In this document: one piece after another, positions 16,290-37,217 of the stretch
How the letters are laid out: each line of letters starts with the position of its first letter
How positions within the stretch are numbered: the first letter of the stretch is position 1
Source: a virus
Strand: one strand, 5' to 3'
Length of the DNA stretch: 64,000 nucleotides
IMG/VR virus record: IMGVR_UViG_3300045919_000302
Location: 1-64,000 of that record
The notes under the pieces: generated by a model
What the model was told of the DNA's origin: nothing
The model's input: only the letters and a program-made list of their open reading frames with translations
The model's database searches: none
Position numbers and translations under genes: made by a program

Positions 16290-17921
16290 TCAATCGACCT
16301 GTTTACGTCTCCATTCCGAGGCGTAATGCTTCTTGCATTTCCGATGGGTGCCGACCGCAGGTAATCCACAGTGGCAATTCCCATAAGAGCCCTTCGGCCT
16401 TCCGGTAATCCTCCCCGGAGGAATGCCGCTTTTCTCTTTCCAGTGGATGGTGCAAAGTCCGCCCCTTTTTGCAGCCATGGATTGACAGCCAAATATTACG
16501 CAATGCTTTGCCGCTTTTTTCGGCTTGATATAGCCCTCTTTTTCTCTGGCCTCAGCGTAATGACGCGAGCAAAGATTCCTGGAGAAAATATCCCTAGCGC
16601 ATCCCTCAGTGAGGCATGACGTCGCACCGAACGCGACTCTCTCGATGTATTTCTTATATCCAACGTTTCCGGCCCTTCTCTTCTCAACCAGAGAGCAGTT
16701 CTTGCAGAAATCAGAAACGCCAGATGCTTGTCGGCCGCAATTCTTACAGTACCTGTCGAACCTGTTTTGAACTACTGGGGTCACAGGAAGTTGTTCAGCT
16801 TCACACCTACCTGGCAAGTCGTAAGAACTGATGGGATGGTTTGTTATCGCTGCCGACCCATACCTCTTAACGGCTGCTAAATCGTAAACCTTCTTTGCCT
16901 CTTCTTCGGAAGCGTACCTGCCGAGGTATTCGTTCTTGTGATTGAAGGTGATTGATACCTCGAACTTACCCTTGCGGTATCTGACGCCTATGGGTCCACC
17001 TTTTTTCCTGGTCCTATTGTGGTTATTTTGAGCGATCGTAATAACCCGCAGCTTGCATCTCCTGTTGTCCAGGCGATTCCTTTCAATGTGATCCACAACC
17101 ATTCCCGGCGGTGCGGTCATCACCTCCCTGTGAAACGGAATCACATGGCCCCCGTCTCTCCGGCAAAGGTAGCCACCAGCCGAGAAATACCAATTATGGC
17201 TCCCTATTTTCTCTAGGTCATCCCGATCACAGAAGATGTACTTGCCCTCTAAAAGTAGAGCTGCGTGCTGATCCGTGAATTCAGAGGGTTTGTCAAATCC
17301 CTCAGTGACCTCTACCGGCCTTCTCTGGCCGGTGAACTGATGCGCGTACTTTGGCTTTACCCTGAACTCATATTCAAAAATAATCTTTGGGTCTTCCTGA
17401 ATCCTGACGTACCCCATCTGCTTGGCGTACTCATCAACGCTGCAACCCATGACCCTCGCTTTTTTCCACGGGGAGTATTTGTGAATGAAGTTTCCGTCTT
17501 TATCCTCGTAGTGAAATGACTTCTCTGTTTTTCCTACTCGCTTAAAGTTGGTGGCCAAATAGATGACGCCGCTATGACCCTCAGATGGTGAGGCATATGA
17601 CTTCACCCCAACCCATTTCCTCTCTCGCTCTAGCATTCGAAGACATCTGCCAAGAAAAAAGCTTTCTGTATTTTTTGGCGTGTCATCGACGACGAAGAAT
17701 CTGCTGAGATTCAGCCAACCAGAATAAGACTCTTCGCTTTGTTTTCTTGAGAACTTCCCAAACACTGCCATCCCAAGCAAGGTGTTCGCCGTCCTAAGCA
17801 GGAAAACGACCTGGGATTTCGGGGGAAACGTCCCCGTGTAGTGCCTCGACGCCAGCCAATCCCTTAGAGACTTGTTAATTTCTGAAGCCTTCTCTACGTA
17901 AAAATCACCGATCGCACCCAT
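16290..17921 (-). CDS. Mom-like (GNAT-fold) DNA-modification domain fused to HNH endonuclease, AP2 and Cys/His repeats
   Basis: HY..G.AVFG..LSRF..PKNTESFFLG..SYA..GHSGVIYLATNF; VVDHIERNRLDNRRCKLR; YLGRY..EEEA..YD.AA..YG; C-x4-C..LC..H repeats; more AT-rich than flanks. Confidence 0.75.
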   Translation of the reverse strand: MGAIGDFYVEKASEINKSLRDWLASRHYTGTFPPKSQVVFLLRTANTLLGMAVFGKFSRKQSEESYSGWLNLSRFFVVDDTPKNTESFFLGRCLRMLERERKWVGVKSYASPSEGHSGVIYLATNFKRVGKTEKSFHYEDKDGNFIHKYSPWKKARVMGCSVDEYAKQMGYVRIQEDPKIIFEYEFRVKPKYAHQFTGQRRPVEVTEGFDKPSEFTDQHAALLLEGKYIFCDRDDLEKIGSHNWYFSAGGYLCRRDGGHVIPFHREVMTAPPGMVVDHIERNRLDNRRCKLRVITIAQNNHNRTRKKGGPIGVRYRKGKFEVSITFNHKNEYLGRYASEEEAKKVYDLAAVKRYGSAAITNHPISSYDLPGRCEAEQLPVTPVVQNRFDRYCKNCGRQASGVSDFCKNCSLVEKRRAGNVGYKKYIERVAFGATSCLTEGCARDIFSRNLCSRHYAEAREKEGYIKPKKAAKHCVIFGCQSMAAKRGGLCTIHWKEKSGIPPGRITGRPKGSYGNCHCGLPAVGTHRKCKKHYASEWRRKQVD

Positions 17922-18110: not shown

Positions 18111-19610
18111 TTAGTACAGGGTGCTTCCAGCGCCAAAGCCAGACGGGCTGATCGTCGCCAGGTTCGACAGCGTGACGGTTCCGTAGAACTCGCTGCGAGC
18201 CAGGAGCTTCGCGTAACGGGTACGGATACCCTTACGGAAGCGGAAGTCATTCGGATCAAGGAACGTCGCCGACACCTGGAGCGGAACGTACGGGGCCCAG
18301 ACGTAGCCGGCATCCACGAACGAGGAGCCCTTGTAGCCCATGACGATCTTGTTCGAGGTGAGATACGGGTCCTTGTAGGCCATGAAGCGGGACATCACGG
18401 TCCCCATCTTCATGATGCCCCAGGTCTGCGGCTGCTCGACCTTGGCCATCGCTTCAGCATCGCCCGCGAAAACCGGCCGGAAGAAGCCGTCGGTGGACAG
18501 CTGTTCGATCTGAGCGGCGAAGTCATAGCTCATGACCATGAAGTTCGCCGGACCGCGCAGGGTGTTCTTGCCGATCTGGTTCGACAGGAGGGTCATCGGG
18601 GTGAGCGAACCACGGATATGGTCGAGTTCACGAACGCCCGAGGGAACCGTCATGTCGTAGGTCGCAGCGCCGCCGGTAGCACCGAGCTTGATGTCCTCGA
18701 TGATTTCGCGGTCGATTTCGAGCGCGAGTTCGGAGCCGACGCCGGCCACGAGTTCCTGCTCAGCATCGATGCCGTGGAGGGCCTTCAGGTCGTCGGAGGC
18801 TTCCGAAGACCAGAGAGCCTTGATCTTACGGCTCTTCGCGGTCACGGCCACAAGGGCGATGTCCACGTTGACCGTCGGGATCTTGCTCGAACCTTCCGAA
18901 ACGTACTCGTAAGAGGCAACGATCGGAGCGAGGTTGGCCGGAGCGGACGAGAACGTCACGGTGACAGCGCCGGACGTGTAGTTCACGGTGCCGGAGGCCA
19001 CGCCCGTGCCGGTGAGGTTACCAGCGCCGTCATCAACAGCGGTAACGCTGCCGACAACGATCTTGAGCTTGGTGGCGCGAGCCGGGATCCAGGCGAGGGT
19101 GTGCGAGAAGGCGACCGTGGTGCCGTCGCCGGTACCGAACGCTTCACCGTCGATGAACTCCGAAGAGTAAGCGCGGTTGAAGTCCTTCACGAGCTTGTTG
19201 CCAGCAGCAACAGCGCCCTTGTTGTCGCCGTACTTCAGTTCGAAGTAGAAGATCGCGCCGACCGGAGCGGACATCGGCTGGATCGAAACGATCTCAGGAG
19301 CGATGAGGCTCGGCCACACGCGGCGGAGGAGCGGGAATGTGTACTTGATGAACGGCGCGGTGTTCACCGTGGTGGTGTCTTCGCCGAGCACGTGCTTCTC
19401 TTTGAAGCTCTTCAGCTCATGGAGCTGATTTTCAAAAAGCTGCGCGAGACAGTACTTGCGGTAGGCATCCATCTGGATAGGCCGACCGGTGGAATCCTTC
19501 TGGGGGATCCATTTGTTCCAACGCTCGATGAGCGCCGCACGTTGCGGATTACGGGCAAAACCTTCGCCCGAGAGATCCGATTTCATTTCCTGAAGCTGCC
19601 GCTGTTCCAT
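18111..19610 (-). CDS. Major capsid protein, T4 gp23-like, with an inserted beta domain
   Basis: PLLRRVWPSLIA..SIQPMSAPVGAIFY; VTAKSRKIKALWS.EA..DL.A.HGIDAE; YAPYVPL-like; DPNDF..RKGIRTRY. Confidence 0.95.
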   Translation of the reverse strand: MEQRQLQEMKSDLSGEGFARNPQRAALIERWNKWIPQKDSTGRPIQMDAYRKYCLAQLFENQLHELKSFKEKHVLGEDTTTVNTAPFIKYTFPLLRRVWPSLIAPEIVSIQPMSAPVGAIFYFELKYGDNKGAVAAGNKLVKDFNRAYSSEFIDGEAFGTGDGTTVAFSHTLAWIPARATKLKIVVGSVTAVDDGAGNLTGTGVASGTVNYTSGAVTVTFSSAPANLAPIVASYEYVSEGSSKIPTVNVDIALVAVTAKSRKIKALWSSEASDDLKALHGIDAEQELVAGVGSELALEIDREIIEDIKLGATGGAATYDMTVPSGVRELDHIRGSLTPMTLLSNQIGKNTLRGPANFMVMSYDFAAQIEQLSTDGFFRPVFAGDAEAMAKVEQPQTWGIMKMGTVMSRFMAYKDPYLTSNKIVMGYKGSSFVDAGYVWAPYVPLQVSATFLDPNDFRFRKGIRTRYAKLLARSEFYGTVTLSNLATISPSGFGAGSTLY

Positions 19611-19652: not shown

Positions 19653-21284
19653 CTACATCAAAGCTTCGATCTGATCCTGGGTAGCTCCTGGAGTCAGATC
19701 TGCAATTTCCCCAATGACCCCTTCGACTCCGGTGGAGCGGCGCTTTTCTGTGCCGGTCTTCTTCACCTGATCTTCGACGAGGTTGGTCGTTTTGACCCTT
19801 TCAAACCTTCTTCTCATGAGATTGTAATCTTCGTTTACGACAGGAGCAACGGCAAAACGCTTTACGATCGAATCGATCTCATTACGTTCTGTTTTGCCTT
19901 CGCAGAGTTTACGAATCTTCGCGGCGTTCGGATTGTCGCGAATGCACTCCTCGACGTAGAGTCGCATGCCCAAGCTCTTACTTGTTTCGACAGATTCCCT
20001 AAGGGCCTGTTCGAGCTTGTGCGTACGATCTTCGGCCGCCTTGATACGAGACTCCATACGAGCTTCGATCCGCTTGCGATCCATCTCGGCCTGCTTCTTC
20101 TTGGCCTTTCCAGCGGCGACCTTCTTCTTGGCTTCGGTGAGAGCTGCTTCGACCTGATCGACATTCTCGAACTTCTTGGCAGAGACGTACGAAAGAACTT
20201 CTTCACGGTCTTCACCAAGCTTCGCGAGCGAACGCTCGTAATGAAGCGTGGCGGCCAAGCGGTTGGCGACCAATCCAATCTCGTCAATCTTGGAAACGAG
20301 GCCCTTGTTCTCTTCCTGGAGCTGGGCGATCTGCGTGTCTCGAACCTTGAGAGATTCGTCGAGTTCAGCCGGGCTCGCGGCGACGATGGGAATGAGGACC
20401 TTCTTGATGTCTTCGAGCGCGATGTGCGCGGCAGCGAAGGTCGGATCCGCAAGGAGTTCAGCCTTGATGGACTCGCGAAGCTTCTGCTTCTCTTCTTCGA
20501 GGTTCGCAGCGGCGGGAGCGGCTTCTTCCTTCACGTTGGCTTCCGCGTTGGCTTCTGCGGCCGGTGTCTCGGTGACAGCAGGAGCCTCTTCCTTCTTGGG
20601 CTCTTCGACAGCAGCTTCTGGGGCCTTCACTTCCTCGGGCTTCTGAATCTCGGGAACTTCGTTCGATTCAGATTTCAATTCAACTGCCTTCGCGGTCTTG
20701 TCTTCCATTTGAGCATCCTTTTCTTTTTTCTCGTTCTCTTTGAGAACGGATTCGGGCTCGATCCAGCGAACCTCGGTGGTGAACTTAGGGTACGACGTGA
20801 GCACGGCCGGATCCGCTACGAAGTCGTGAGTCATATAGGCGTAGTCTTCCTGGACCACTTCCATGCCGCCTTCGCCCATGGCCGTTGATCCCATGCCGCG
20901 AGAAGATACGCCGACAGCTCCGCCGGCCTCCAGGATCGAGCGCAGCTGGTTGCCGTGCTCATTCAGGAGGATCTTGGCTTCGCCCAGGATGACCCCGTCG
21001 TCCGTCATACGGAGACCGGTCATGAGGTGAGACACGCGCTTGAGTGACGTCTTCCCGTCCGCCGGATGGTCCAGCTCGCCCATGACCTTGCCTGCTGCCA
21101 GGGACTCATAAATCTTCTGGATCTCGCGCTCCCAGAGTTTACGAGGATACATACGACGATTCTGCGTCGGGATGTCCGCACGCCCGAACTCGCCGCGAGC
21201 AACCAAGAAACGCCCCTGAGGCTCGTTACTTTCAGTCAGCTGGAGACGGAGCGCACTGCCGAAATCAATCAGAAGCTTTGACAT
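19653..21284 (-). CDS. Prohead protease (gp21-like) fused to a scaffold-like coiled coil
   Basis: NRRMYP, GELDHP, VSH, GVSSRGMGS, DFVADPA; ~350-aa E/K/A-rich C-terminus. Confidence 0.9.
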   Translation of the reverse strand: MSKLLIDFGSALRLQLTESNEPQGRFLVARGEFGRADIPTQNRRMYPRKLWEREIQKIYESLAAGKVMGELDHPADGKTSLKRVSHLMTGLRMTDDGVILGEAKILLNEHGNQLRSILEAGGAVGVSSRGMGSTAMGEGGMEVVQEDYAYMTHDFVADPAVLTSYPKFTTEVRWIEPESVLKENEKKEKDAQMEDKTAKAVELKSESNEVPEIQKPEEVKAPEAAVEEPKKEEAPAVTETPAAEANAEANVKEEAAPAAANLEEEKQKLRESIKAELLADPTFAAAHIALEDIKKVLIPIVAASPAELDESLKVRDTQIAQLQEENKGLVSKIDEIGLVANRLAATLHYERSLAKLGEDREEVLSYVSAKKFENVDQVEAALTEAKKKVAAGKAKKKQAEMDRKRIEARMESRIKAAEDRTHKLEQALRESVETSKSLGMRLYVEECIRDNPNAAKIRKLCEGKTERNEIDSIVKRFAVAPVVNEDYNLMRRRFERVKTTNLVEDQVKKTGTEKRRSTGVEGVIGEIADLTPGATQDQIEALM

Positions 21285-21458: not shown

Positions 21459-24305
21459 TCAGTTGTGGAAGACCATGACTCCGTCGTCGGAGTCCACGAA
21501 GGAAACGGATCCATTCATCTCCGCATCGCGAGCATAGGCTTCGTAGTCGATCGAGAAGAGATTGAGCTTCATGATCTCTTCGATGCCGTAGCCCAGCTCA
21601 TCCATGAAATAACCGACTGCGTCCTTTTGGAGCTGCTCCTGAATATCACTGGAGTACCGATCCCTGAGTTCTTCGCGAGCATCGTCAATGACCTTTTGAA
21701 CCGAGTCGGCCCCATCCGTCAGAGTGAGCATCCGATCCTTAATCTCTTGAACCCTGCTTTTGTCTTCAGGGTCCTCTTCGTCGAGACCGTCCAGCTCATC
21801 TTGAAGTTGAGCCAGCTCCTCTTCAGCGGCTTCTGCCGCCTCAAGTTCTTCCTCCTTGTCGGCATCGGAGATGACCTCGCTATCTTTCATGTCTCCCACG
21901 CGACGATCAGCTTCTTCCGAGGCGATCAAACGCATGTCGGTTTCGGACATCGTCAGATAGTTCGCCGCATTGTCTTTGCTCAGTCCGCCCGTCTCTTCGA
22001 GGAAGTCAGCAGCCCAGTCTTCCTTGGACTTGGCCTGACCCATGTAAGCGTCTTTCGCCTGGTCGATCGTGGCTTTGCTGTCGTTCATCAGATCGATGTA
22101 GGCTTCAAGTATCTTGCGATCTTCCTCGTCAAGATTGAGCCAGTCCCAGACCTTCTCGTCGATGCTGGACTCGCTGTAGTACCGTTCCGGGAATCCCTCG
22201 TAGCCCTGGAACATCGGTTCCGGATCTTCTTCATCCTTGTGAAGCTCTTTGCAAGCTTCGAGGAACTCATCCTTGTCGGCGTAGTCTTCAAGATTGAGCC
22301 ACGCGCCCTTGATGCTGCCGTCGTTGTATTTGGCGTAGGTGCCGACGTAAACAGCCGGGCCAGAAGGGGCCTTGGCTTCGGTCTTCACCGACTCCTTGAC
22401 CGGCTCTTCGGTGCCTTTGCCACAATTCGGGCAGACGCCCACGTGCGGATCCGCGACGGTCGTTTCATCGTCCTTGATGCGGATCGGCTCGCCACAGTGG
22501 GGGCAGTTGTAACCGTCGGATGACTCAACCTTCTCCTCGCCATTCTTCAGCAAGGTCTTGCCCATGACCAACTCGTTGAAGCTGCCCAGGCCCATCTTGA
22601 CCTTGGTGTCTCCACCGCTCAATACCACTTCTCCGCCATCCATGTGGACGTGAAGCTTCTGGCCCACCTTCCACTCGGGCTGATCCGGCACCGGAGCGAG
22701 AACCGAATACACGGCCACATCGCGGGCCTCAGGGAGGGTGTAGCCGTACTTCTTCCCGTTGAACTCGACGGAAAGGGACTCGCCCACATCTCTGCGAACG
22801 TCGCCCTCCTTGTTGTAAGTCTTCAGGCACATCGAGTCGTCGCAAACGTGATCATCGCCCGACTTGTGAGAGGTGCTCTTTCCGCAGACGACGCACTCCC
22901 CGGTGACAAGCTCATTCTCTGCCATTCCCTTTACGGCGATCTCTGCCTTCTCGGAATGAGAGTCGTTGTATTTCTTAACGGCATCGGCAAGAGATGCAGT
23001 CTTAGGCATCTCAAGAGCCTTCATGAATTCAGCACCACCCATGCGCTGAGTTACTTTCCCATCCTTGTCTTTAACAACAACGCAAACAGGATCCTTAGCT
23101 TCAACCACCGACTCTTTGCCTTCGTCCGCAAGTTTGTCGTTCAGCGCGTCCACGAGTTCATCGCGATCCACGACGAACATCCAGGTATCATAGGAGGCAT
23201 TGCCGTAGGCGTAGTTGGACTTGCCATCCCAGTAAGCTTCGTTGAGGTCCTTCGTAACTTTCGCCTTGTCCTCTTCGGAGAGGCCAGCGACAAGTGCCTT
23301 GAAGATATCTTCCACTTCCTCGCCGTTCACGATCCCGGAATTGCCGTCGAGCTGAGTCTCAACCTCTCCGATCTGACCAGATCCACCGACCGCGTTCATC
23401 GGATAGAACACCCCAGACGCCTCGGGTTTCGCCAGACTGCTCAGGATCGCAGTGATGTCGTCCTTCGAGAGCCCGGCCTTGAGAGCGTCCTCTACCGGAC
23501 CCCATAGCTCGTTGTTGGTCATGTTGATCGCGAGGAGCGCATCCGTCGTGATGGTTTGACCGAGAGCGTCCAGGTAGTCCTGGCCGGAGTCCTCGTGCTC
23601 GGTTTCATATTCAGTATTGGACTTCACATTCTCATCAATCCAGGCCGCCAGCGCTTTCATCTGACTTTCCTTATCAGAGAAGCTGATCTCGCCCTGGGAC
23701 TCCTTGATGGGCTTGCTGCGCTTCTTGACGGATTCGTCTTTCGATCCTTCGCCGCCCTTCACGTATACAGCGACATGATAATAGTGTTCAGAGTCGTTCA
23801 TCGAGTGACCCGCGTCTTCGATTTCCTTCTTCACGACTTCGCTGACCTGGAGACCGTCTTCTCCAATTGCCTGTAGGATTTCATTCGCAAGGTCTTCAGT
23901 GTTGCCGCCACAAGCGGAGTAGGTCACTTCTTCTTCGATGGCGTCTTCAGAGACTGAGTCGCGCTTGACGGCTCCGCCAACAATCGAAGAAGGCAAAAGA
24001 TCGGCTTCGCCGTCCACCTTGGCACTCAGAACCTCTTTGCCGGTGACAACCAGCGTAACGTCCAGAGAGGTGACAACCTGATGATCGTTGTCGGCCTTGT
24101 CGGCGTCAGCTTCCAGTTCAGTCGAGATCTCATAGCCCTGTTGGGCGAGCATCTCGATCGCGTCATCCACAGCTTCTTTCTGGGTCATGCCGATGCCCAC
24201 GGAAACGTCGTCCCACTTCGAGTGAGAGGTCCCGCGACCCTGGAAGTACTGGGAGTGTTCCATGCCGATGTCTTCGATTTCAAATTCAACGATCTTTTTG
24301 CTCAT
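21459..24305 (-). CDS. Multidomain acidic protein with C-terminal ArdA antirestriction domain
   Basis: VYVGTYAKYNDGSIKGAWLNL...EDPE.MFQ.YEGFP...IDYEAYARD; zinc ribbons; xxE|S/A linkers. Confidence 0.8.
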   Translation of the reverse strand: MSKKIVEFEIEDIGMEHSQYFQGRGTSHSKWDDVSVGIGMTQKEAVDDAIEMLAQQGYEISTELEADADKADNDHQVVTSLDVTLVVTGKEVLSAKVDGEADLLPSSIVGGAVKRDSVSEDAIEEEVTYSACGGNTEDLANEILQAIGEDGLQVSEVVKKEIEDAGHSMNDSEHYYHVAVYVKGGEGSKDESVKKRSKPIKESQGEISFSDKESQMKALAAWIDENVKSNTEYETEHEDSGQDYLDALGQTITTDALLAINMTNNELWGPVEDALKAGLSKDDITAILSSLAKPEASGVFYPMNAVGGSGQIGEVETQLDGNSGIVNGEEVEDIFKALVAGLSEEDKAKVTKDLNEAYWDGKSNYAYGNASYDTWMFVVDRDELVDALNDKLADEGKESVVEAKDPVCVVVKDKDGKVTQRMGGAEFMKALEMPKTASLADAVKKYNDSHSEKAEIAVKGMAENELVTGECVVCGKSTSHKSGDDHVCDDSMCLKTYNKEGDVRRDVGESLSVEFNGKKYGYTLPEARDVAVYSVLAPVPDQPEWKVGQKLHVHMDGGEVVLSGGDTKVKMGLGSFNELVMGKTLLKNGEEKVESSDGYNCPHCGEPIRIKDDETTVADPHVGVCPNCGKGTEEPVKESVKTEAKAPSGPAVYVGTYAKYNDGSIKGAWLNLEDYADKDEFLEACKELHKDEEDPEPMFQGYEGFPERYYSESSIDEKVWDWLNLDEEDRKILEAYIDLMNDSKATIDQAKDAYMGQAKSKEDWAADFLEETGGLSKDNAANYLTMSETDMRLIASEEADRRVGDMKDSEVISDADKEEELEAAEAAEEELAQLQDELDGLDEEDPEDKSRVQEIKDRMLTLTDGADSVQKVIDDAREELRDRYSSDIQEQLQKDAVGYFMDELGYGIEEIMKLNLFSIDYEAYARDAEMNGSVSFVDSDDGVMVFHN

Positions 24306-24316
24306 GGCCCTGCTCC

Positions 24317-27300
24317 TTATTCCTGTTCCGGTTGGTCGTCGAGAATGGCGTCAACGGCCTTCTTCACTTCAGTTGCAAAATCCGACTCGTCGAGCGTAGC
24401 GACCAGCTGGTCGAACGTGTTGCCGGCCTGGTCGTAGGCGTAGTCCTCGACGAAGTCGTCACTCTTGAACGGAGAGACGTCGTCCAGCAACCAGAAGGCC
24501 CAGTTCCAGCTTGATCCGGCTTCCTGGATGCCGTCATAGATGTTCCGGTCATAGAGAGCGGCCGGCTCAAGGTCTCTCGACACTCCGCCGCTTTCGATAT
24601 GGATGTAAGCGGCCATCGCCTCGGATCCGGTGTAGGAATCTAATCCGCTGATGTCCGCTTCCACTGTAAAATGGTCAGACAGCTTTCCAGCCTTGGCTCC
24701 TTCCTGGTCGATCACTTCTTTCACGAAAGAAACGATTCCAGCCCTCGCGCTTTCCATGTTCTTGTCGGCGTACTCACGCGAAGCGAACAACTGGATGGTA
24801 TTACGCAGGTCTTTAATCACCTCTGGCTTGAGGCGGAACGCCTTCTGGACACCGAGTTCGGAATCAGCCTCTTCAGGGCTTACCATTTCGATATCACCCG
24901 AGTAGCCGTACTTCTTAAGGGCCGCTTCGAGTTTAGGGGTCAGCTCGTGCATATCTCCCAGATCATCTCCGGAGGACTCAGTGGTCTGCTTTAAAATCTT
25001 CTTGGCAGAATCGGTGTCGCCTGAGCGGACGAACTTACCGGAAAGGCTCTTGCCCATCGCGGCTTTCTTCTCCTTGGTCATGGACTTACCAGGGTGCGCC
25101 TGAGCAGGAGCCTGGACAGACTCCTCACTTGGGAGAAGGGCTTTCAGTTTATCCACGGAGAGCGGCTCGTCATTCATGTCCCAAAGCTTGCCGTTCCAAC
25201 TGACTTTCCCGACCTGCTTATCCCCAGACATGATCTTGCTGAGAAAATTACCGCCGCCCAAATTATACTTCTGAGCGTACTTCTTGACCTCGTCTCCCAG
25301 CTTGCCCACGTTGCTGGACGTGATCTGAACGCTTTCAGAATCGGATCCAGGAAGGGGCTTATTCGGGTCCTGACCGAAGTCCGGATTGCCAACGTTGGTC
25401 ATCACTAAAACAAGGCTTCCGGAATTCTCTCCGGATTCACTCATGCCCGAGCCCATGAGCTTGATGCCCTTCTCGAAGTCCTTGGCGGTCTCTTTGCTTC
25501 CGGAGTCCTTGAGATCCGGAATCAGAACCTCTTTGAGATAGTTGATGAACTCTTCCCTAGAGAAGTCGTCAGCAGACGAAGCGCCCTCAATGAACTTCAC
25601 GAGGGTCTCAAAGTCCTTCGCCGTCTCAAACCGCTCCATCTCTTCCAGATCCGGGATGAGCGTGCCCTTGAGGTAGCTGACGAAAGATGCCTTGCCGTCT
25701 TTCTTCTTGGCCTCATGCATATCGTCGTGATCTTCACGGCCGGCGATCTGGCACTTCGCGCAGAGCTTGTCACCCGGCTCGGCAACGAGGCGTCCGCATT
25801 GAGAACAGTGCTCGCCATCGCCATCAGCGTCGCGCCCATCCAGATTGTCCTGGGCGAAATCCCGGGGATCCCCGCCGGAATAGACGGTACTCTCAATGAT
25901 GATCATTCCCGACTCATCGCCCATGTCGGCGACGTAAGGGTTGATCTCTTTGAACTCCTTGGAGACGTTCGTCAGGATGTCGCCAACTTCCTCTTCGTAG
26001 TCGCCGTCCCAGAAACCAGCCCCGTGACCGTTCCGGGTCAGCCAGAAGTCGTGGCCCAGCTGTTCAAGGTCAGCAATGCCACCTTCGCCACGGCGACACT
26101 CCAGGTTTCCGATGTCGTAGCCGGCCTTCTCAAGCGCGGCCTGGGCCTTGTCGTAGAACTCATCACAGTCCTTCTCGGCCTGAGTCACGGAGTCAGCCGA
26201 GATATCGGCGATGGAATAGTTCCAGTCCATGGGCTCGCCGCCTTCGGGTGTGGACTCGTCGGTAGACGACCAGAGCGCCGTTTCCAGGTACTGGGAGACC
26301 ATAGGCGAGAGCTTCTTCTGAGCTTCGGTCATGTCCAGATCCCGCTTAACGCCGTCCGCGTTGTCGCTGACCACGCTCACGAGCTGGTCGAGGGTGCCCT
26401 TGAAAGGCTTGCCGCCTTCCTTCTCCCAGGCCGCGAGGATCCGCTCTGCGACCTTCTTCACATCCAGGGTGGTCTTCACCTTGTGGAGCATGGCGTAGAG
26501 ATTTTCTTTGCCGACTGCAAAACTGAACAGATCGTCTGCGTCTGCCGTGTCCTTCATTCTGGCGTCTTCGAGTTTGGGCTTAACCCCGGAACTGGACCCG
26601 GAGGCGAAGATGTGATCGCGGATGCTCGCGGCATCGCCCTCTTTCGCGCCGGGGAAGTCGGCGAGCATCTCGTGGAATGCGTCCTTCCAGTTCTCAAAAA
26701 TCCCGTCCGCGTTGACGGCCCAGTCCACAAAGGCTTCCTTGAAGCGTTCGACTTCGGTGTATTCCTTGAGTCCAGTAATGGAGGCGATCGTGCCGGAGGA
26801 GAGGCTACGAATCTCCTGCTCCAGCTTGCCGCTCATGTCTGACTCGCCCATTGCCTGCTCGACGGCCTTGTCCAGGCTTTCGACCATGATGGAAAGAATC
26901 TGGTGGGCTTCTTCTTCCTCGACCTTACCCTCGCGAATCTGCTGAGCCATGTAGAGCGCGTCGTCCTTGACCTTGCGGTAGTCGGCGTACTCGGGCTCCT
27001 TCTGTTCTGCGACGGGCTTCTTGACGCCGAGGATCTCGGCGAAGTCCTCGTCGAGCGCGAGACTGGAAGACGAGAAATCGGGAAGCTCGGGGAGATCTTT
27101 GAACCCGCATTCGCTGACGGGCTTCTCGACCGGCACCTTCTTGCTTTCGGTGGTAACCTTTTTCTCACCCAGAATGGTGATCAAACTGTCCACCAGCTTG
27201 GCCGCGTTCTCAAAGCCCCGAATCAGATTCATCTTCTCGCCCATCTTACCCTCCGTCAGATTCGCCAGGTACCCAATCGAGGAAAGATGAATCCTTCTCC

Positions 27301-27544
27301 GACTGCCCGGCTTGATGTGCATCCGCTTGCGGATCTTCGCACGCCTCTTGGCCATTCGTTTGTACCGCGAGGTCTTCCTGCGGCGTTTCGCCATTCTCTT
27401 GAGTCTTGCCTTACGCTTACGATAGTACCGCTTCCGCTTCATGCGGACACGAGCCGGTGTACGCTTAGACCGCGTAACGCGAACTTCGTACAACCAACTC
27501 TCAATCAGCAGATTCAGAATAGATGGCTCGACCACTTTTTGCAC
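24317..27544 (-). CDS. Multidomain protein with gp68-like basic N-terminus, putative core-anchored polyprotein
   Basis: R/K-rich first ~90 aa, located after portal; later domains include ETALWSS...GHDFWLTRNGHGAGFWD and GNPDFGQ...LGGGN. Confidence 0.7.
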   Translation of the reverse strand: MQKVVEPSILNLLIESWLYEVRVTRSKRTPARVRMKRKRYYRKRKARLKRMAKRRRKTSRYKRMAKRRAKIRKRMHIKPGSRRRIHLSSIGYLANLTEGKMGEKMNLIRGFENAAKLVDSLITILGEKKVTTESKKVPVEKPVSECGFKDLPELPDFSSSSLALDEDFAEILGVKKPVAEQKEPEYADYRKVKDDALYMAQQIREGKVEEEEAHQILSIMVESLDKAVEQAMGESDMSGKLEQEIRSLSSGTIASITGLKEYTEVERFKEAFVDWAVNADGIFENWKDAFHEMLADFPGAKEGDAASIRDHIFASGSSSGVKPKLEDARMKDTADADDLFSFAVGKENLYAMLHKVKTTLDVKKVAERILAAWEKEGGKPFKGTLDQLVSVVSDNADGVKRDLDMTEAQKKLSPMVSQYLETALWSSTDESTPEGGEPMDWNYSIADISADSVTQAEKDCDEFYDKAQAALEKAGYDIGNLECRRGEGGIADLEQLGHDFWLTRNGHGAGFWDGDYEEEVGDILTNVSKEFKEINPYVADMGDESGMIIIESTVYSGGDPRDFAQDNLDGRDADGDGEHCSQCGRLVAEPGDKLCAKCQIAGREDHDDMHEAKKKDGKASFVSYLKGTLIPDLEEMERFETAKDFETLVKFIEGASSADDFSREEFINYLKEVLIPDLKDSGSKETAKDFEKGIKLMGSGMSESGENSGSLVLVMTNVGNPDFGQDPNKPLPGSDSESVQITSSNVGKLGDEVKKYAQKYNLGGGNFLSKIMSGDKQVGKVSWNGKLWDMNDEPLSVDKLKALLPSEESVQAPAQAHPGKSMTKEKKAAMGKSLSGKFVRSGDTDSAKKILKQTTESSGDDLGDMHELTPKLEAALKKYGYSGDIEMVSPEEADSELGVQKAFRLKPEVIKDLRNTIQLFASREYADKNMESARAGIVSFVKEVIDQEGAKAGKLSDHFTVEADISGLDSYTGSEAMAAYIHIESGGVSRDLEPAALYDRNIYDGIQEAGSSWNWAFWLLDDVSPFKSDDFVEDYAYDQAGNTFDQLVATLDESDFATEVKKAVDAILDDQPEQE
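25452..25684 (-). repeat. Intragenic tandem domain duplication
   Basis: FVSYLKGTLIPDLEEMERFETAKDFE versus FINYLKEVLIPDLKDSGSKETAKDFE. Confidence 0.8.
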
Positions 27545-27575
27545 CGACCTTTTCCAAAGAATATACTAGGAAAGT

Positions 27576-27603
27576 TACGGGTGCCAGGCTTTAGGCGGGC
27601 GTA
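27576..27603. repeat. 28-bp spaced palindrome, copy 4
   Basis: TACG GGT GCC AGGCTTTA GGC GGG CGTA. Confidence 0.85.
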
Positions 27604-27606
27604 CAT

Positions 27607-29388
27607 TTACTTTCGGTTGGTCGAGCGGTCTACCGAGTGCTGAAGTTCTTCCATCATGCGCTTGAGCTGCTCCCACTTTTTGCCAGACGTTTTGTCCTGC
27701 GCTTGGATCCGATCAGTGCGTTCAATCAGCGAGTCGGTGTTGCGCTTGATCTGACTGAGGATTGGGAGGCTCGTGTCTTTCGAAGCCGTGACGGGTTCTT
27801 CTTCTCCGCCGGACATCGGTTCACTGGCCTCAGGCTCACTCGGAGAACTCGGAGTGCCACGCTTGGCAAGGGCCTTCTCCAGATCCCCAGTGCCGCCAGA
27901 CGGAACTTCGGACTCATCCGAGTCACCCTTGAGATTCATTTCTCGGATCTGATCATCCGACCAGCCCAAGACATGCGTCTTGATCCAGTAGTCCGGGGCC
28001 CACGGTTTGTACTTGTCGGCCAGATCCAGCTCGGCTGCGCGGATCTCCAGCTGCGCCAGCTCGAAGATCGCCGACGGGACCGTCATCTCGACGTCAAACT
28101 CAACGGCGTCCGGGTTGACCCCCTTGGCCGCGAGATGCACCTTGCAGATGTGCTTGATGCCGTTTCGGAACTCACGCTGAACGCGAATGACCGTACGAGC
28201 GAAACGAGAGTCCTCGGCCGAGAGGTTAGTCTTGGCGGTGGACTCTTCGTAAGTGAGGAAGGGCTTCGGAACTTTGAGCGCCGCGAACAGTTTGTTCTCA
28301 AAGAACTTGATGTCTTCGATGTGATCGTAAATCGGCCCCTGGAGGGATTCAACCCGAGTGGACTCTTTGCCGTCGCGCATTGGCAAGAAGAAGTCTTCAT
28401 CAGCGGATAGGACGTCGAACTTCCTGTCCATTTTCCCGCTGTTCGGATTCACAAATTTCTGCTTCTTGAACGACTGCTTGACCCTCTGCAAGTAGCTCAT
28501 GGACTCATTGGGCGGGATCCCAGAAACGTCCACGTAGAATGCGTAGCGCGAGGGGGCTCGGCTCAAGCGATGCATGATGATCGAGTCTTCCAGGAGAAGG
28601 AGACGCTTGAAGACCCAGCGAGCCGGCTCACCGATCCCGTGGCCGTAGGGGCTGAGGGGGTTCTTTCCCATCAGCCTCATGTGAACCACTTCCCAGCTTT
28701 CGAAGATCGCGCAGTCTTTTACGGGTTGAGCGGGCTTTCTCCGACCAGTGGCTCGAAACTCCAGTTCCCCCAGGAACTGCTCAGAGGAAACCCTGAATGA
28801 TCCCCTTGGGTCATAAATGAATCCGAGCGTGTCGATTTCATGGTCCTCGCGACCATCTTCGAGTTTGCGGCCGATCTCCTTGGGGATCTCGATGCGCCTC
28901 ACGGTCGGGGGCGCGAGCATGTTCACAGCTACCACGCCGGCTTTAGCCTTCGCCACGATCTCTGCGTACAGGTTTCCGTACTTACAGAGCATGCGGACCC
29001 AGCTCCAGACCCTTTGTTCGATGTCGAGGCGTTTGTGCAAAAGATCATCCAGCTCTGCGCGGACGTCTTCATCTTCGGCTTTGATCCAGACGCTCTTTCC
29101 TGTTTGCGCATCTACCTGGGATGCGTCATCCGCATAAATATCGATTGCCGAAGAAATCAGCGGACTGTCGTCCTGATCTTCGTAATCCATGAAGCTGGCG
29201 ACGAGATCGGCGTCGATCCGTAAGTGGTCCGTAAGCCCAGGGATCGATCCGCTGTTGATTCCGAAGCTCTGATTTGATTGCGTACCGAGGCCCTGATATC
29301 CCGCGACCGGAACATAAGGAGGTCGGTGGTACTCGGTGTCCCGAAAGAATTGCCGGATAAATTTGATCGAATCAGAACCTACGCCCAT
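27607..29388 (-). CDS. Portal protein, T4 gp20-like
   Basis: ISSAIDIYADD, LLEDSIIMHRLSRAPSRYAFYVDV, EDFFLP.R, IEDIKFF..KLFAALKVP, EDSRFARTV. Confidence 0.95.
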   Translation of the reverse strand: MGVGSDSIKFIRQFFRDTEYHRPPYVPVAGYQGLGTQSNQSFGINSGSIPGLTDHLRIDADLVASFMDYEDQDDSPLISSAIDIYADDASQVDAQTGKSVWIKAEDEDVRAELDDLLHKRLDIEQRVWSWVRMLCKYGNLYAEIVAKAKAGVVAVNMLAPPTVRRIEIPKEIGRKLEDGREDHEIDTLGFIYDPRGSFRVSSEQFLGELEFRATGRRKPAQPVKDCAIFESWEVVHMRLMGKNPLSPYGHGIGEPARWVFKRLLLLEDSIIMHRLSRAPSRYAFYVDVSGIPPNESMSYLQRVKQSFKKQKFVNPNSGKMDRKFDVLSADEDFFLPMRDGKESTRVESLQGPIYDHIEDIKFFENKLFAALKVPKPFLTYEESTAKTNLSAEDSRFARTVIRVQREFRNGIKHICKVHLAAKGVNPDAVEFDVEMTVPSAIFELAQLEIRAAELDLADKYKPWAPDYWIKTHVLGWSDDQIREMNLKGDSDESEVPSGGTGDLEKALAKRGTPSSPSEPEASEPMSGGEEEPVTASKDTSLPILSQIKRNTDSLIERTDRIQAQDKTSGKKWEQLKRMMEELQHSVDRSTNRK

Positions 29389-29397: not shown

Positions 29398-32300
29398 CTA
29401 GCCCATCAGGAACGGCGGTGTGAAGTTGCTTTTCCAATCATGCCCTTGATTGGCCTCTTGTTCCAGGGCCTTCTCGGCATTGGCCCGCCACTCTTGTTTC
29501 ATTTCTTCAGAATTACTTTCTATCACGATGGTCGCAGCATCGTCGAGAACCCAAGTGTCTTCATCGGAATTCTGAAACATCTCACGCGAACTGATCGGCA
29601 CATCCAGAATGCCAGAGGCCGCCTCCGTAAGAGTCGTCGTAATCGCGGCCAGAGCATCTGCGATATCTTTGCTGCCGCGTTGCGTTGCCGGCGGGTGGTC
29701 TACTTTTCCCGTCTTCCAGTCCTTCTGGAGTTCGCGAAGCTCCTTGATGAGCGGCGGATAATTGTAGATCTGGATCCGGTTCTCGTAGAGCGCAGTCTTC
29801 ATGACTTCGTAAGGGCCGCCGGCAGGCTCCACCGAAACCACTCGGGTCTGGTAGCCTTGGCCCTTCACGGTCTGGAGAAGATTCGCAGACTGGAATTGAT
29901 CGGCGCTGACCTGCTTGATGAAGAAGCCGTGCTGAGTCAGCTCGTAAATAATCCGGCGGATCTCGGAATACGAGATCTCACCCCCTCGCGGAGCGCGTAC
30001 CTGGAGTACGAAGTCCACATGGATGATCGGGGCCATCTCCTGCTCAGCCTTGCCGAACCTCTGAATGGGCGCGTATCCGGCGACACACCCGACGGCGATA
30101 CCCGTACAGTCCTGGGTTTTTGATAAGTCGAGGTGCAGGTGCCTGGGGGCTTTCGGATGCGCCAGGGGCTCCCAGGAGCCGTCTGGGTGAAGTTTAGCGA
30201 GCTTCTGCCAGTCGAAGCGTCCTGGGATGTCCTGATCCCAGGTCTCCTGGCTGAATGGATGGGTGCGGTTCTTGTCTATGGCCTCGTAGATCTTCTCGCG
30301 TCGGGCGATGAACGGGGTGATGGCCACTGTAGATCTGCCGGCGTGGTCCCGGATCGCGGCGTCAATATCTTCGACGAACGCACCGTGGAACTCGACCGGC
30401 ACCTCGACTACTTCCATGCCTTCCGGGTCCGCCTCACCGGCAGTCATGATCCGGGACATCTTGGTCTCATTCCCGATGGCCACACGGAATTTCTTCCCGG
30501 AGAAACGTTCCTTTGGGACAGCCTCCCAGACCGCCCGCTCCCTGACGAACACAAGGGGATCGCCAACGTACTTCCGGATGAGCTTCTCCGTGAACGCATT
30601 GGGCGTGGTCTTCGAAGAGGCCACCAAGATAACGCCAGGGAGTCTGCCTCGATTCATGAATCGAGACTCCATTCGGCGCTTGATGGCTTCGAAGATCACC
30701 TCGATGTTTTCCTTTACTTCGCTCCGGCCGACTTGCTGGTCACGCTTGTGAAAGAAATTGCCTTCGTCAACGGCTGCACCAATCGCATTCGTACCGACCA
30801 CTTGTCCTGCGGTCGAGGCTCCGGGCGGGAACGTGAACCGGTTTGGAAAGATGATGCCGGCAGCGGCTGTGTTTCTAATCGGGGCGAAGTGCTTCCGGAA
30901 GAACTCGGACTCATCAACGATCGCCCGGATCTTCGATACGAGATTGCGCTCGGCCACGTCTTCTGTGACAGAGACGCAAGGGACTGATATGTAGTCGGTG
31001 CTAGAGATCTGGTAGGTCTCGTGCGGATCTCGCATGCAGTAAACGTCATACGCCATGCGAACACATCCAATGACTGACCCGGTGGAGTTGTGAGTCACCA
31101 GGAAGTTATCCGTCAGGTACAGCCCATTTGGATTGCTGACGGTAATGCAGCGCATCGGCACAACCTCGCCGAGACGTACGTTGCGAACCGTGTTGTAAAG
31201 TTGCGTCGTCTCGCCAAGCGCGTTGACCTTCTTTCGAGCCAGCCTGAATAAATTCTTATTATTTCTGCTGCGGATATAGACAGTGAACGAATCAGAACAC
31301 TCGTAGGTCTTGCTGCCGTCGCCGCTAGTGCGGTCGCGCCCAGCCCTCTTACTAAGGGAAGCATAACAACCCAAAGATCTCGCCAGCCATTGAACATCTC
31401 TTGCAAGTCGCTCGTTCGTGCTAAAGAATTTCACGCTTCCGCATTCTTTGTCTGCGCTGCCGTCGCTATCTAGGAGGCCCTGGAGTATCGCTAGTCTGGC
31501 AACCTTTGGAGCAAACTTATAACACTCTGGAACGAACTTAGATCCAGCATCGGCATTGAAGAGCCCAATCGTGCGCAACTGGAGCCTTAGCTTGTGGACT
31601 GAATCACCCTTGAAGCTGATATCGAAACAGTCCTTGCCGTACTTAGAGAAGTCGGTCACATAGTTGCTGCCAACGCGGTCAGCGATCTCACGATAGAAAT
31701 GAATATCTGCACCGTTGACGGTGATCTTAACCCTTCGATCATTCATCGTTCCATTTCCAAGCATATAGCCGAGCAGGTATGGGTCGATTGTCCTGCCGCC
31801 GATGTCCGTTAGATCTACAGCTTCGGTGATGGGTATTTTGAACAGCTTTTTGCTGCCCAGTTTTTTTGAAAATTCCCTGAGCGTGTGATCATAGACTTGC
31901 CTGGATGTCTTAATGCAATTTGAATTATTCCATGAAAGACATGGGTCGCTCTTATCTCTGCGCCAACCCCCATACCAAAGATGATCGCCGCAAGAGGAGA
32001 CCTCTTCTCCATCGCCCAGCTCGAAGATGTACTCCTGCTCCTGCGTGATCGCGTGTAATTCGCGAATGATGGCAATCGTTCCATCGGGATTGCAGATCTG
32101 GTCTCCCACCTTGAGATCGACGATCTGCCTGAAACCTGTTGGGGTCAGTACGTGGTCTTTGACGCGCTGCTTCTTGCCCCCGCCAAGTGAACCTCCCCAG
32201 ATCGCGGTGTTGTACCCGCCCTCAAAGATCTCGATCAGGTCTTTCTTGATCTCCGGAAAGAGAGTCTTGGTGATCGATCCTAAATAGAAAGGGTTCTCCA

Positions 32301-32517
32301 AGAACTCCTTCATCGATACCGGAGGAACCCGGTAGAGATCGCGCGAGGCGTACTCGATGATCGGGCTTGCCCCGTCACGCATGAAATCCTCCAGGACAGA
32401 GAGCGCTGCTTCGCGCTCGGGTCCTGAAAGTCCTTCCATCTCTCGCTGAAAGATCTCAGCGTACTCGGCGTCAGTCCGAATGGACTGAAACCTTCCGCCT
32501 TGATTTAGGATGCTCAC
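29398..32517 (-). CDS. terL: Terminase large subunit with intein
   Basis: Walker A GGSLGGGK|ST split by the intein; Walker B AAVDE; nuclease HLDLS..D, DQFQS, KVDHP..SKDIADA. Confidence 0.93.
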   Translation of the reverse strand: MSILNQGGRFQSIRTDAEYAEIFQREMEGLSGPEREAALSVLEDFMRDGASPIIEYASRDLYRVPPVSMKEFLENPFYLGSITKTLFPEIKKDLIEIFEGGYNTAIWGGSLGGGKKQRVKDHVLTPTGFRQIVDLKVGDQICNPDGTIAIIRELHAITQEQEYIFELGDGEEVSSCGDHLWYGGWRRDKSDPCLSWNNSNCIKTSRQVYDHTLREFSKKLGSKKLFKIPITEAVDLTDIGGRTIDPYLLGYMLGNGTMNDRRVKITVNGADIHFYREIADRVGSNYVTDFSKYGKDCFDISFKGDSVHKLRLQLRTIGLFNADAGSKFVPECYKFAPKVARLAILQGLLDSDGSADKECGSVKFFSTNERLARDVQWLARSLGCYASLSKRAGRDRTSGDGSKTYECSDSFTVYIRSRNNKNLFRLARKKVNALGETTQLYNTVRNVRLGEVVPMRCITVSNPNGLYLTDNFLVTHNSTGSVIGCVRMAYDVYCMRDPHETYQISSTDYISVPCVSVTEDVAERNLVSKIRAIVDESEFFRKHFAPIRNTAAAGIIFPNRFTFPPGASTAGQVVGTNAIGAAVDEGNFFHKRDQQVGRSEVKENIEVIFEAIKRRMESRFMNRGRLPGVILVASSKTTPNAFTEKLIRKYVGDPLVFVRERAVWEAVPKERFSGKKFRVAIGNETKMSRIMTAGEADPEGMEVVEVPVEFHGAFVEDIDAAIRDHAGRSTVAITPFIARREKIYEAIDKNRTHPFSQETWDQDIPGRFDWQKLAKLHPDGSWEPLAHPKAPRHLHLDLSKTQDCTGIAVGCVAGYAPIQRFGKAEQEMAPIIHVDFVLQVRAPRGGEISYSEIRRIIYELTQHGFFIKQVSADQFQSANLLQTVKGQGYQTRVVSVEPAGGPYEVMKTALYENRIQIYNYPPLIKELRELQKDWKTGKVDHPPATQRGSKDIADALAAITTTLTEAASGILDVPISSREMFQNSDEDTWVLDDAATIVIESNSEEMKQEWRANAEKALEQEANQGHDWKSNFTPPFLMG
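31087..32172 (-). mobile_element. Class 3-type intein with LAGLIDADG endonuclease (362 aa)
   Basis: KQRVKDHVLTPTG...DHLW...YLLGYMLGNG...ILQGLLDSDG...MRCITV...VTHN|S. Confidence 0.9.
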
Positions 32518-32847: not shown

Positions 32848-33957
32848 TTACGTGGTTAACTCGGGCGCAACCTCTGCGACCATGTCACTTCCCAAGATCT
32901 GAATAACCTTTTTTACGATCCCTTCATCATTGGTGTGCAGATTGACATGATCAGCTTCACCAGATGGTCCCACCTGGATAAACGCTTCCGGTTCAAGCTT
33001 TAAAACGGCGTCTCGCATCGCCTGCGTTATCTCACTATCTGGATTGAGGAAAATGGTATGCATCGGCTCGTCATCTACACGCTTCATCTTCAGTGCGTGG
33101 ATGTGCTCGGATGGGACGTCAGGAAGACTGAACGGGATGTCTCCAGTCTTTTTGTTCCCACGGCGGAAGCGATTCTCGTTCTCCCCATGTTCAGCATCGG
33201 TCGCGTCCCAGTAGGTGTAACTGTCGTCGTGACCATGTTGAAGCGCGATCTTGTAGAACGGGGAACTCGGCGAAAGACGCTTCGAAATGTAGAAGTAGAA
33301 GTCGTTGCTCTTCGAGTAATCCTCAAAGTAATCTTGCTCCGGCTCGGTGATGCACCACTTCGTCCCAGAGCCGTAGAGCATTGCGGCCTCTTTGGTAGTG
33401 ATGTGGTAAACCTTCCAGTACTTGTCCTCGGCGACGAGTTTGGCCCCCGATGCCTTCTTCTCTTTCTTCTCCTGGCTCTTCGACTTGCTGGCCTTCGTCT
33501 CATCGACGAAAGCCTTGAACTCGGCCCAGGTCTTCCACTTGTCGATGTCCTTCTTGGTGGCATCCTGGATCTTCGGCTTCAAAAGCTTGAAGTCGGTGAT
33601 GTAGTCGGTGATCTCGTCATCAGGAGCCCCTTGATCCTTGAAGCGCTTGATAGAGGTTTTGAAGTCCTCTTCGAGACTTTCATTCTTGGGCCATTGATGT
33701 GTTTTCTCGTATGCCCCAAAGATCGTGTTGCATCTGGTCTGAGCACGCTCTTCGGATTCAAGCGGGCCATCGCGATAAACCTGGCGCTCATCGTCGAATA
33801 TCTGGGCAATCCAGCCATTGGAATACAGACCGACCATGGCCGTGATGTAGTCCGTGAAATTCCGGTACGACCCACGGATGCACGAATCCCTCGCCTTCCA
33901 CCCATCGTCAGACTCGAATACCGGCAGGCCGAACCTATCTACGCCCTCGGTGAACAT
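32848..33957 (-). CDS. Tagged multidomain protein
   Basis: MFTEGVDRFGLPVFES; internal KNE|S; YGSGTKWCIT domain. Confidence 0.7.
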   Translation of the reverse strand: MFTEGVDRFGLPVFESDDGWKARDSCIRGSYRNFTDYITAMVGLYSNGWIAQIFDDERQVYRDGPLESEERAQTRCNTIFGAYEKTHQWPKNESLEEDFKTSIKRFKDQGAPDDEITDYITDFKLLKPKIQDATKKDIDKWKTWAEFKAFVDETKASKSKSQEKKEKKASGAKLVAEDKYWKVYHITTKEAAMLYGSGTKWCITEPEQDYFEDYSKSNDFYFYISKRLSPSSPFYKIALQHGHDDSYTYWDATDAEHGENENRFRRGNKKTGDIPFSLPDVPSEHIHALKMKRVDDEPMHTIFLNPDSEITQAMRDAVLKLEPEAFIQVGPSGEADHVNLHTNDEGIVKKVIQILGSDMVAEVAPELTT

Positions 33958-34973: not shown

Positions 34974-34983
34974 TTGATCTCCG

Positions 34984-36114: not shown

Positions 36115-36263
36115 AACGATCTCCTTTTTCCCTAACAAATTAAACTCATCTTCAGTCAGCAGAGTGTAAACCATAATTGCGGAAGCCACCATCCTGGCAT
36201 TCGCAAGCAACCCAAGCAACAACCCTTTGACTCTTTGTCATGACAAAAGGTATAAGTCAGGCT

Positions 36264-37100: not shown

Positions 37101-37116
37101 CGTCCTGCTGTGCCCC

Positions 37117-37144: not shown

Positions 37145-37156
37145 AGTTACGATAAC

Positions 37157-37196: not shown

Positions 37197-37217
37197 ATAT
37201 CCTCCTGGCGGGGATCT

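Follow-up and report, generated by a model that had tools for sequence, protein, structure and literature searches.

In the T4 internal-protein system (IPI*, IPII, IPIII, and Alt), each gene specifies one small protein with a targeting peptide of 10-19 residues (MKTYQEFIAE-like), the capsid-targeting sequence (CTS), and these proteins are processed by the protease gp21 (PMC9026906). The ejection proteins of the giant phages SPN3US, phiKZ, and 201phi2-1, which are processed by gp245/gp175, carry long N-terminal propeptides with multiple protease motifs (PMC10052503, PMC5694885), and the homologous protease of SPN3US cuts at A-x-E, with Ser preferred at P1', taking off propeptides 111-254 residues long by multiple cuts (PMC10052503). 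Besides, polyvalent proteins have been described as giant mosaics of small conflict domains, including ArdA, which lie beside virion genes, undergo rapid domain shuffling, and are proposed to have their domains released by proteolysis (Iyer, Burroughs, Anand, de Souza, and Aravind 2017; PMC5512222). Here, we describe two adjacent genes with features of all three systems in a 64,000-nucleotide stretch of viral DNA (positions 1 to 64,000 of IMG/VR record IMGVR_UViG_3300045919_000302), hereafter the window, which makes up the first 64 kb of the single-contig, 149,291-bp genome of an uncultured T4-like phage. The genes lie between those for the portal and the prohead protease and encode giant proteins of 1075 and 948 amino acids (aa), here called P0001 and P0002 (P and L numbers are labels for related proteins and loci). 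We favor, with about even confidence, the reading that both are head-internal cargo polyproteins that would be loaded by means of an anchor, processed at hydrophobic-x-E|small sites by the S77 protease (the bar marks the candidate cut), and ejected as separate modules.

The likeness to T4 is threefold: an S77/gp21-type protease accompanies a gp23-type capsid protein and a gp20-type portal in both; the T4 sites FIAE|A, TITE|A, and FLTE|A follow the hydrophobic-x-E|small context met here; and both hold anti-restriction cargo, IPI* being injected in T4 and ArdA presumably being delivered here. In contrast to T4, P0001 starts with an unrelated anchor of 234 residues, and the giants have up to ~10 modules per chain with internal sites, occupy the gp67/gp68 slot, and carry acidic cargo, whereas the cargo of the T4 internal proteins is basic. 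The giant-phage ejection proteins resemble P0001 in their long, multi-motif N-terminal propeptides and in a small/hydrophobic-x-E motif with Ser at P1', and many proteins of those phages are packaged with the DNA, as is proposed here. However, their mapped cuts leave one mature C-terminal protein, whereas the conserved sites of the giants are situated between numerous independent modules, and we liken them by function only, the present 149-kb genome not being that of a jumbo chimallivirus.

The resemblance to polyvalent proteins lies in mosaic construction, an ArdA domain, and a position beside virion genes. Each giant has at least 6-10 modules, which are reordered among ~15 relatives, and ArdA is the only recognized conflict domain; nearly all the other modules are undescribed among polyvalent-protein domains. 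Polyvalent proteins commonly, though not always, have MuF/portal fusions or embedded peptidases (MPTase and others), whereas P0001, P0002, and 11 related giants gave no Pfam, NCBIfam, or PHROG match to either. Here, the prohead maturation protease would release the modules in trans by cutting at Glu junctions.

The two open reading frames (ORFs) and their place in the head operon are as the original prediction had them. On the minus strand the order is terminase, portal, P0001, P0002, S77 protease/scaffold fusion, and gp23-type capsid gene, as follows:

29398-32517, minus strand: large terminase, 1039 aa, its gene interrupted by a LAGLIDADG-type intein
27607..29388, minus strand: T4-type portal, 593 aa, directly upstream of the P0001 gene (PF07230 Portal_T4, E=4e-67; phrog_213)
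24317..27544, minus strand: P0001, 1075 aa, GTG start, a conserved anchor and ~7 putative cargo modules (ORF and translation)
21459..24305, minus strand: P0002, 948 aa, with neither anchor nor tag and with its own AAGGAG ribosome-binding site (ORF)
19653..21284, minus strand: S77 (gp21-type) prohead protease, acidic linker, and scaffold-like C terminus, 543 aa (PF03420, E=1e-14; phrog_207)
18111..19610, minus strand: gp23-type major capsid protein (PF07068)

The protease encoded at 19653-21284, whose His73, Ser127/128, and Asp154/158 are invariant (5 relatives), is the proposed processing enzyme for the giants; its protease domain covers about residues 1-200 and its scaffold part residues 262-543. 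In the database, P0001 is annotated as starting at M51, but residues 5-50 (within window 27394-27544) are conserved in at least 8 relatives; therefore, the start is most likely the GTG at 27544. We also considered whether the two giants are made as one chain. Read-through is impossible since a second stop follows the P0001 stop, and a frameshift is unsupported, the P0002 frame being open for only ~21 codons upstream and its own AAGGAG site lying 11 nucleotides after the P0001 stop.

The slot between portal and protease is that of the core genes gp67/gp68 in T4. The P0001 N terminus recalls the LIE motifs of gp67, and its basic segment recalls the Arg/Lys-rich tract of gp68. Nevertheless, the T4 proteins, at 80 and 141 aa, are far smaller than the giants, at 1075 and 948 aa, and the basic tract lies at the C terminus of gp68 but at the N terminus of P0001. 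Comparison of the anchor with gp68 and gp67 by hhalign gave probabilities of 0.6% and 0.1%, respectively, from a profile of only 3 sequences and hence with low power. Thus, the claimed gp68-like opening holds for charge, residues 16-98 and the T4 gp68 tail both being basic, and fails for homology, which is not detectable.

Both giants are mosaics of modules. We delimited the parts of P0001 from candidate sites, homology, and AlphaFold2 models with their predicted local distance difference test (pLDDT) scores:

27500..27544, minus strand: residues 1-15, amphipathic conserved N terminus, ends L-I-E|S (L-[LI]-E in 7/8 relatives; predicted helix 7-20)
27251..27499, minus strand: residues 16-98, Arg/Lys-rich helical segment, ends in conserved N-L-T/M-E|G (AlphaFold2 helices 31-74, pLDDT 80-87)
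26843..27250, minus strand: residues 99-234, helical-bundle part of the anchor, ends M-G-E|S (pLDDT >90)
26324..26842, minus strand: residues 235-407, helical module or modules, ends M-T-E|A; 333-407 common to P0004
25892..26323, minus strand: residues 408-551, phrog_1915 domain, ends I-I-E|S (phrog_1915, E=2e-27; pLDDT 92-98)
25712..25891, minus strand: residues 552-611, CxxC...CxxC putative zinc ribbon in a low-confidence stretch, ends M-H-E|A (weak Zn_ribbon_3 match; pLDDT <50)
25436..25711, minus strand: residues 612-703, two tandem ~45-aa helical repeats, ends M-S-E|S (sequence; helices 613-699)
25121..25435, minus strand: residues 704-808, poorly predicted module, ends S-E-E|S
24977..25120, minus strand: residues 809-856, basic 48-aa mini-module (GKxMTxxKKAxMGKSL...), common to L002, L003, and P0004
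24320..24976, minus strand: residues 857-1075, acidic C-terminal module, net charge -28 (matches in P0140, P0170, and P0196 begin at their residues 7-15)

The basic segment carries a net charge of +34 over 83 residues (isoelectric point [pI] 12), and the bundle that follows it has structural matches to generic three-helix bundles only. Most pieces of putative cargo between candidate sites are acidic (pI 4.1-4.9), the phrog_1915 domain having a net charge of -22. The tandem repeats show the pattern F-x-x-YLK-x-x-LIPDL ... ETAKDFE and have no family match. The corresponding parts of P0002 are as follows:

23700..24305, minus strand: residues 1-202, poorly predicted N-terminal region, ends I-K-E|S (flavodoxin matches sub-threshold only)
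23100..23699, minus strand: residues 203-402, acidic module (FxDKESQ...), ends V-V-E|A (common to L003 and P0004)
22377..23099, minus strand: residues 403-643, three small units (AlphaFold2 unit boundaries; weak zinc-ribbon matches)
21462..22376, minus strand: residues 644-948, long ArdA unit, preceded by K-T-E|A (PF07275)

The three small units are an alpha/beta part with a Cys-rich stretch, a beta domain (510-594), and a putative zinc ribbon (595-643), split by V-G-E|S and K-V-E|S. Mean pLDDT was 58 for P0001 and 63 for P0002; confident units were the basic helices (31-85), the bundle (100-130 and 189-234), 360-550, and 660-700 in P0001, and the whole ArdA unit in P0002.

The C-terminal unit of P0002 is an ArdA protein and the sole module with a recognized anti-defense role. 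It matches PF07275 with 75.5 bits (cut-off 27; E=9.4e-21) over residues 652-785 and the anti-restriction family phrog_2059 with E=9e-19. With the 948-residue model as query, the top Foldseek match was 2w82_B (probability 1.00, 143 columns, target TM-score 0.50, E=0.013), and pLDDT exceeds 90 over 645-948. The unit agrees with the ArdA mimics (PF07275; Tn916 Orf18, PDB 2w82; PMC2731889) in profile, fold, and strong acidity, its net charge being -53 over 305 residues (pI 4.1). A helical insertion of ~130 residues makes it a 'long ArdA' of ~305 aa, with the C-terminal ArdA strands at 917-948. Whereas ArdA is usually the product of an early or leading-region gene, here it forms the C-terminal part of a 948-aa protein of a late structural operon. 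As claimed before, a candidate site stands directly in front of it: KTE|A at 643/644, with PF07275 starting at 652 and the confident AlphaFold2 fold at ~645. Stand-alone ArdA homologues of 264-316 aa begin at the same point as unit 644-948.

Comparison with related uncultured phages supports the modular reading. When 1.8 billion representative proteins were scanned with HMMER, P0001 homology fell into three blocks (residues 5 to 234-239, 409-542, and 860-1071). The first is common to 10 other proteins of 375 to 1791 aa that are wholly divergent beyond it (P0004, P0005, P0131-P0133, P0135, P0141, the L002 and L003 giants, and P0130, which has its second half only). Homology ends at residues 233-239, past which the relatives cannot be aligned. 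Further searches for anchor loci gave 2 in IMG/VR and 1 in a metagenome scan, the latter on the same contig as L003. The full order of portal, anchored giant, (second giant), S77 protease, and capsid gene is found in the window, L002, L003, and L008, and parts of it in L001, L007, L009, and the P0009 contig: P0004 (L001) and P0009 each directly precede the protease, and P0134 (L007) directly follows the portal. A second giant often follows the first and has no N-terminal block.

Within this slot the modules recur, reordered, in ~15 giant proteins, and they are also found as small stand-alone genes. P0004 combines P0001 blocks (5-232, 333-407, and 819-1064) with a P0002 block (209-390), and the L002 giant holds anchor and ArdA in one chain. 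The C-terminal module of P0001 forms the N terminus in other giants and stands alone in L011 as a gene of 231 aa, and the phrog_1915 domain has more than 1800 representative homologues at E<1e-10 (more than 6000 in total count), many of them stand-alone at 120-150 aa. For this domain, the long ArdA, and the C-terminal module, the stand-alone genes start within a few residues of the junction. Thus, the same modules are deployed as ordinary genes in other phages. Stand-alone copies of the long ArdA and of the P0001 C-terminal module (L010:986-1825 and L011:4875-5570) lie in small-gene arrays outside head modules.

These data bear on whether the giants are instead morphogenetic core or scaffold proteins, replacing gp67/gp68 or resembling an inner body, whose pieces are degraded and expelled and in which ArdA and the rest are undelivered passengers. 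That the gp67/gp68 slot is occupied, that T4 gp68 also has a basic tract, that cutting reduces the T4 core proteins to small peptides (PMC9026906), and that no part other than the anchor is conserved in all relatives are consistent with such a role. However, homology to gp67/gp68 was not detected with the three-sequence profile, total size ranges from 375 to 1791 aa, and the cargo is reshuffled between close relatives, a pattern typical of genes in an arms race and not of assembly parts. Furthermore, ArdA and the phrog_1915 domain are well folded and also exist as ordinary stand-alone genes. We therefore consider a purely morphogenetic role quite improbable.

At module junctions that are conserved across relatives, Glu-small dipeptides are found more often than chance would give. 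In relatives, the sites before ArdA read VKTE|A, SIKE|S, PLIE|S, LEEE|A, VIKE|A, and ATAE|S. The 48-aa GKxMT module is preceded by SEE|S, VDE|A, QEE|A, or VKE|A and followed by TTE|S, HHE|S, AHE|S, or HSE|P, both Glu residues being kept in 4/4 proteins and the second being followed by Ser in 3/4. The phrog_1915 domain ends in IIE|S, FIE|S, or FIE|G, the F/I-I-E|S/G form being kept in L003 and P0134. The N-L-T/M-E|G site after the basic segment of the anchor is found in 9/10 anchors (E-[GS] at that column), and the anchor end has Glu in 11/11, mostly as hydrophobic-x-E. Over the 18-residue windows upstream of module cores, E[SAG] occurred in 17/21, against a mean of 10.1 after shuffling within windows (p=0.00075) and a background rate of 0.36 (p=4e-5); the next best X[SAG] reached 7/21. 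Shifting the windows by 18-54 residues gave 6-9/21, except for 13/21 at +54, inside the modules.

A stricter, T4-type motif was enriched in the family as a whole: 17 giants contain [LIVMF]-x-E-[SAG] 183 times, whereas 110.4 occurrences were expected (ratio 1.66, p=1.7e-10); control motifs with Asp, Lys, or Gln at P1, reversed, or with a charged P1' gave ratios of 0.91-1.26. The rest of the phage proteome had a ratio of 1.16, and the giants exceeded that baseline with p=2e-6 (relatives alone, p=1e-5). P0001, with 13 against 6.1 expected, is among the most enriched ORFs of its genome. Cutting after Glu by a gp21-type protease, as the original prediction proposed, fits the T4 sites named above as well as A-x-E|S of SPN3US (PMC10052503). 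In T4, Asp in place of that Glu prevents processing (PMC9026906).

The positions of these sites also bear on a second alternative, in which the giants are packaged but only the anchor is trimmed, possibly in several cuts, and the remainder is an intact polyvalent protein, either ejected or part of an internal head structure. In SPN3US, 13/14 mapped sites serve to remove an N-terminal propeptide, and ~80% of the head proteins escape cutting (PMC10052503), polyvalent proteins have often been proposed to act as single chains (PMC5512222), and the two best-conserved Glu sites in the giants are both within the anchor. Nevertheless, Glu-small is also conserved far from the anchor, before the ArdA, phrog_1915, 48-aa, and FxDKESQ modules, and the motif enrichment spans whole giants, including anchor-less second giants such as P0134 (11 against 7.4). 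Besides, a chain of ~840 residues would presumably need unfolding to pass the tail. We regard trimming of the anchor alone as unlikely, although it is the alternative we take most seriously.

Several points weigh against the cargo-polyprotein reading. Packaging and cleavage of the giants are deduced from sequence, the phage being uncultured, and megablast found no close relative among 50,697 phage records. P0002 has no anchor and, in a regular-expression scan of the genome's ORFs, no D-x-F-G-[LM]-P, a candidate head-loading tag of other ORFs. The original prediction had expected E|S/A sites to be enriched and to avoid folded domains, and neither expectation was borne out: plain E[SA] occurred 23 times against a composition expectation of 17.0 in P0001 and 22 against 17.5 in P0002, and 12 of the 23 P0001 sites lay in segments with pLDDT below 50, which cover 45% of the chain, i.e., at background. 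All 12 sites named in that prediction were found at their sequences and lie at AlphaFold2 unit ends or in linkers with pLDDT below 50, but they had been picked out of 45 E[SA] dipeptides. The stricter motif is not enriched in P0002 alone (8 against 6.3), and it occurs inside confident folds (E222 and E1053 in P0001; E683 and E734 in ArdA helices); therefore, the sequence motif alone cannot predict cleavage. Helix-rich proteins may favor hydrophobic-x-E-A on structural grounds, which the proteome ratio of 1.16 controls for in part, and the junction windows were taken from homologous proteins and are not fully independent samples. Finally, only one module has a known anti-defense role.

Some of these points would suit a third alternative, that the giants are late cytoplasmic multidomain proteins (e.g., for DNA protection or as decoys) that are encoded in the head operon without being virion-associated, the Glu pattern reflecting linker composition or another protease. 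It draws on the fact that packaging of the giants is itself deduced, that P0002 has no recognizable targeting element (its N terminus, MSKKIVEFEIE, resembles the T4 CTS only loosely, and the second giants of relatives have no N-terminal motif in common), and that stand-alone homologues are found among small genes outside head modules. Against it, the portal-protease synteny is strict across divergent phages, the junction pattern survives the within-window shuffling that controls for composition and is largely position-specific, and a late-made ArdA would be useful mainly if carried into the next cell. We judge this alternative very improbable.

Under the cargo-polyprotein reading, P0001 would enter the prohead core by its 234-residue anchor, composed of the amphipathic helix, the Arg/Lys-rich (+34) helix, and the three-helix bundle, which would work like the short capsid-targeting sequence of T4 or the long N-terminal propeptides found on ejection proteins of giant phages. 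The S77 protease, encoded two genes downstream, would then cut after Glu at exposed hydrophobic-x-Glu|small junctions and free a basic peptide and small, mostly acidic modules, ~7 from P0001 and ~6 from P0002, including the 305-residue ArdA-type DNA mimic. The modules would remain in the head and exit with the DNA, and might thus act before phage gene expression, ArdA blocking type I restriction and the others being candidate host-takeover or anti-defense factors. We infer packaging, cleavage, and ejection of the giants, the loading of P0002, and the functions of modules other than ArdA. The original notion of a core-anchored polyprotein of small domains is thus supported by comparison for the modules, the N-terminal anchor of P0001, and the Glu junctions, and falls short for the anchorless P0002; that of an anti-defense role is supported for ArdA, whereas the other modules, ~15 in number, match no known family.

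Searches of Pfam, NCBIfam, PADLOC, PHROGs, and PDB sequences with whole giants and sub-segments recovered only ArdA and phrog_1915, and Foldseek searches of the PDB with both full-length models recovered ArdA only. Sub-threshold zinc-ribbon, flavodoxin, and Tai4 matches were not trusted. Protein searches of phage records with the giants likewise matched only the phrog_1915 domain and ArdA. A search of the ESM Atlas placed the phrog_1915 domain in unnamed viral clusters and gave no usable match for P0001 residues 857-1075.

Proteins injected with phage DNA act before phage gene expression and are thus a first line against restriction and other defenses. To our knowledge, few virion-injected proteins are known, among them T4 IPI*, Alt, P1 Dar, and N4 virion RNA polymerase. 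It is possible, and we say so tentatively, that the present phages are an uncultured T4-like lineage with a multi-cargo delivery cassette, in which one Arg-rich anchor leads a reshuffled string of up to ~10-15 small, mostly acidic effectors that are separated by cutting at Glu junctions. If this is true, each module, including the widespread phrog_1915 domain, would be a pre-made injected takeover or anti-defense protein, and the portal-protease slot would be a discovery site for new anti-defense proteins. If the giants are cut, a head maturation protease can act like a viral polyprotein protease, with a single anchored precursor as the source of many effectors; ArdA would be added to the virion-delivered anti-restriction proteins, ~15 uncharacterized modules, one with thousands of phage homologues, would become candidate anti-defense or takeover factors, and the anchor-plus-linker design might be a portable means of loading capsids with foreign proteins. 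If the giants are uncut, they would still offer an unusually clear case of polyvalent proteins of mosaic build, lying in the gp67/gp68 slot of a T4-like head module. As a variant of the T4, giant-phage, and polyvalent systems, the locus is new in its undescribed anchor family, in module-by-module Glu junctions that would imply in-trans, polyprotein-style processing, and in ArdA as putative head cargo.

Similar processing logic may apply elsewhere in this phage. The capsid protein, which has at most ~35% identity to those of Bacillus phage SP-15 and Listeria phage LIS04, has L-G-E|DTTT at residue 77; this sequence is conserved in 3 phages and placed like FLTE|A of T4, and it is a probable maturation cleavage site. 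A regular-expression search found seven ORFs with D-x-F-G-[LMF]-P, N-terminal in 6 and internal in 1, each with Glu 2 or 3 residues after the Pro; the motif was not found in P0001 or P0002.

Window 32848-41677; genome 11278-13569 and 78940-79557: ORFs with D-x-F-G-[LMF]-P, a candidate head-loading tag

Among them, a tagged 871-aa ORF (38502-41117) is the top ORF of the genome for [LIVMF]-x-E-[SAG], with 10 against 3.9 expected.

In L002, the S77 protease-scaffold protein (L002:14148-16760) has 870 aa and a ~330-residue insertion in the acidic linker between its protease and scaffold parts, which may be extra cargo inside the scaffold protein; the portal gene of L002 (L002:7710-9935) bears an intein. 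In the window, a palindrome-like sequence with TACG...CCGTA arms, possibly a site of late regulation, lies within the 62-nucleotide spacer between the portal and P0001 genes (27545-27606). Next to the capsid gene, on its downstream side, a 543-aa fusion on the minus strand (16290-17921) joins a Mom-like DNA-modification domain to HNH endonuclease domains.

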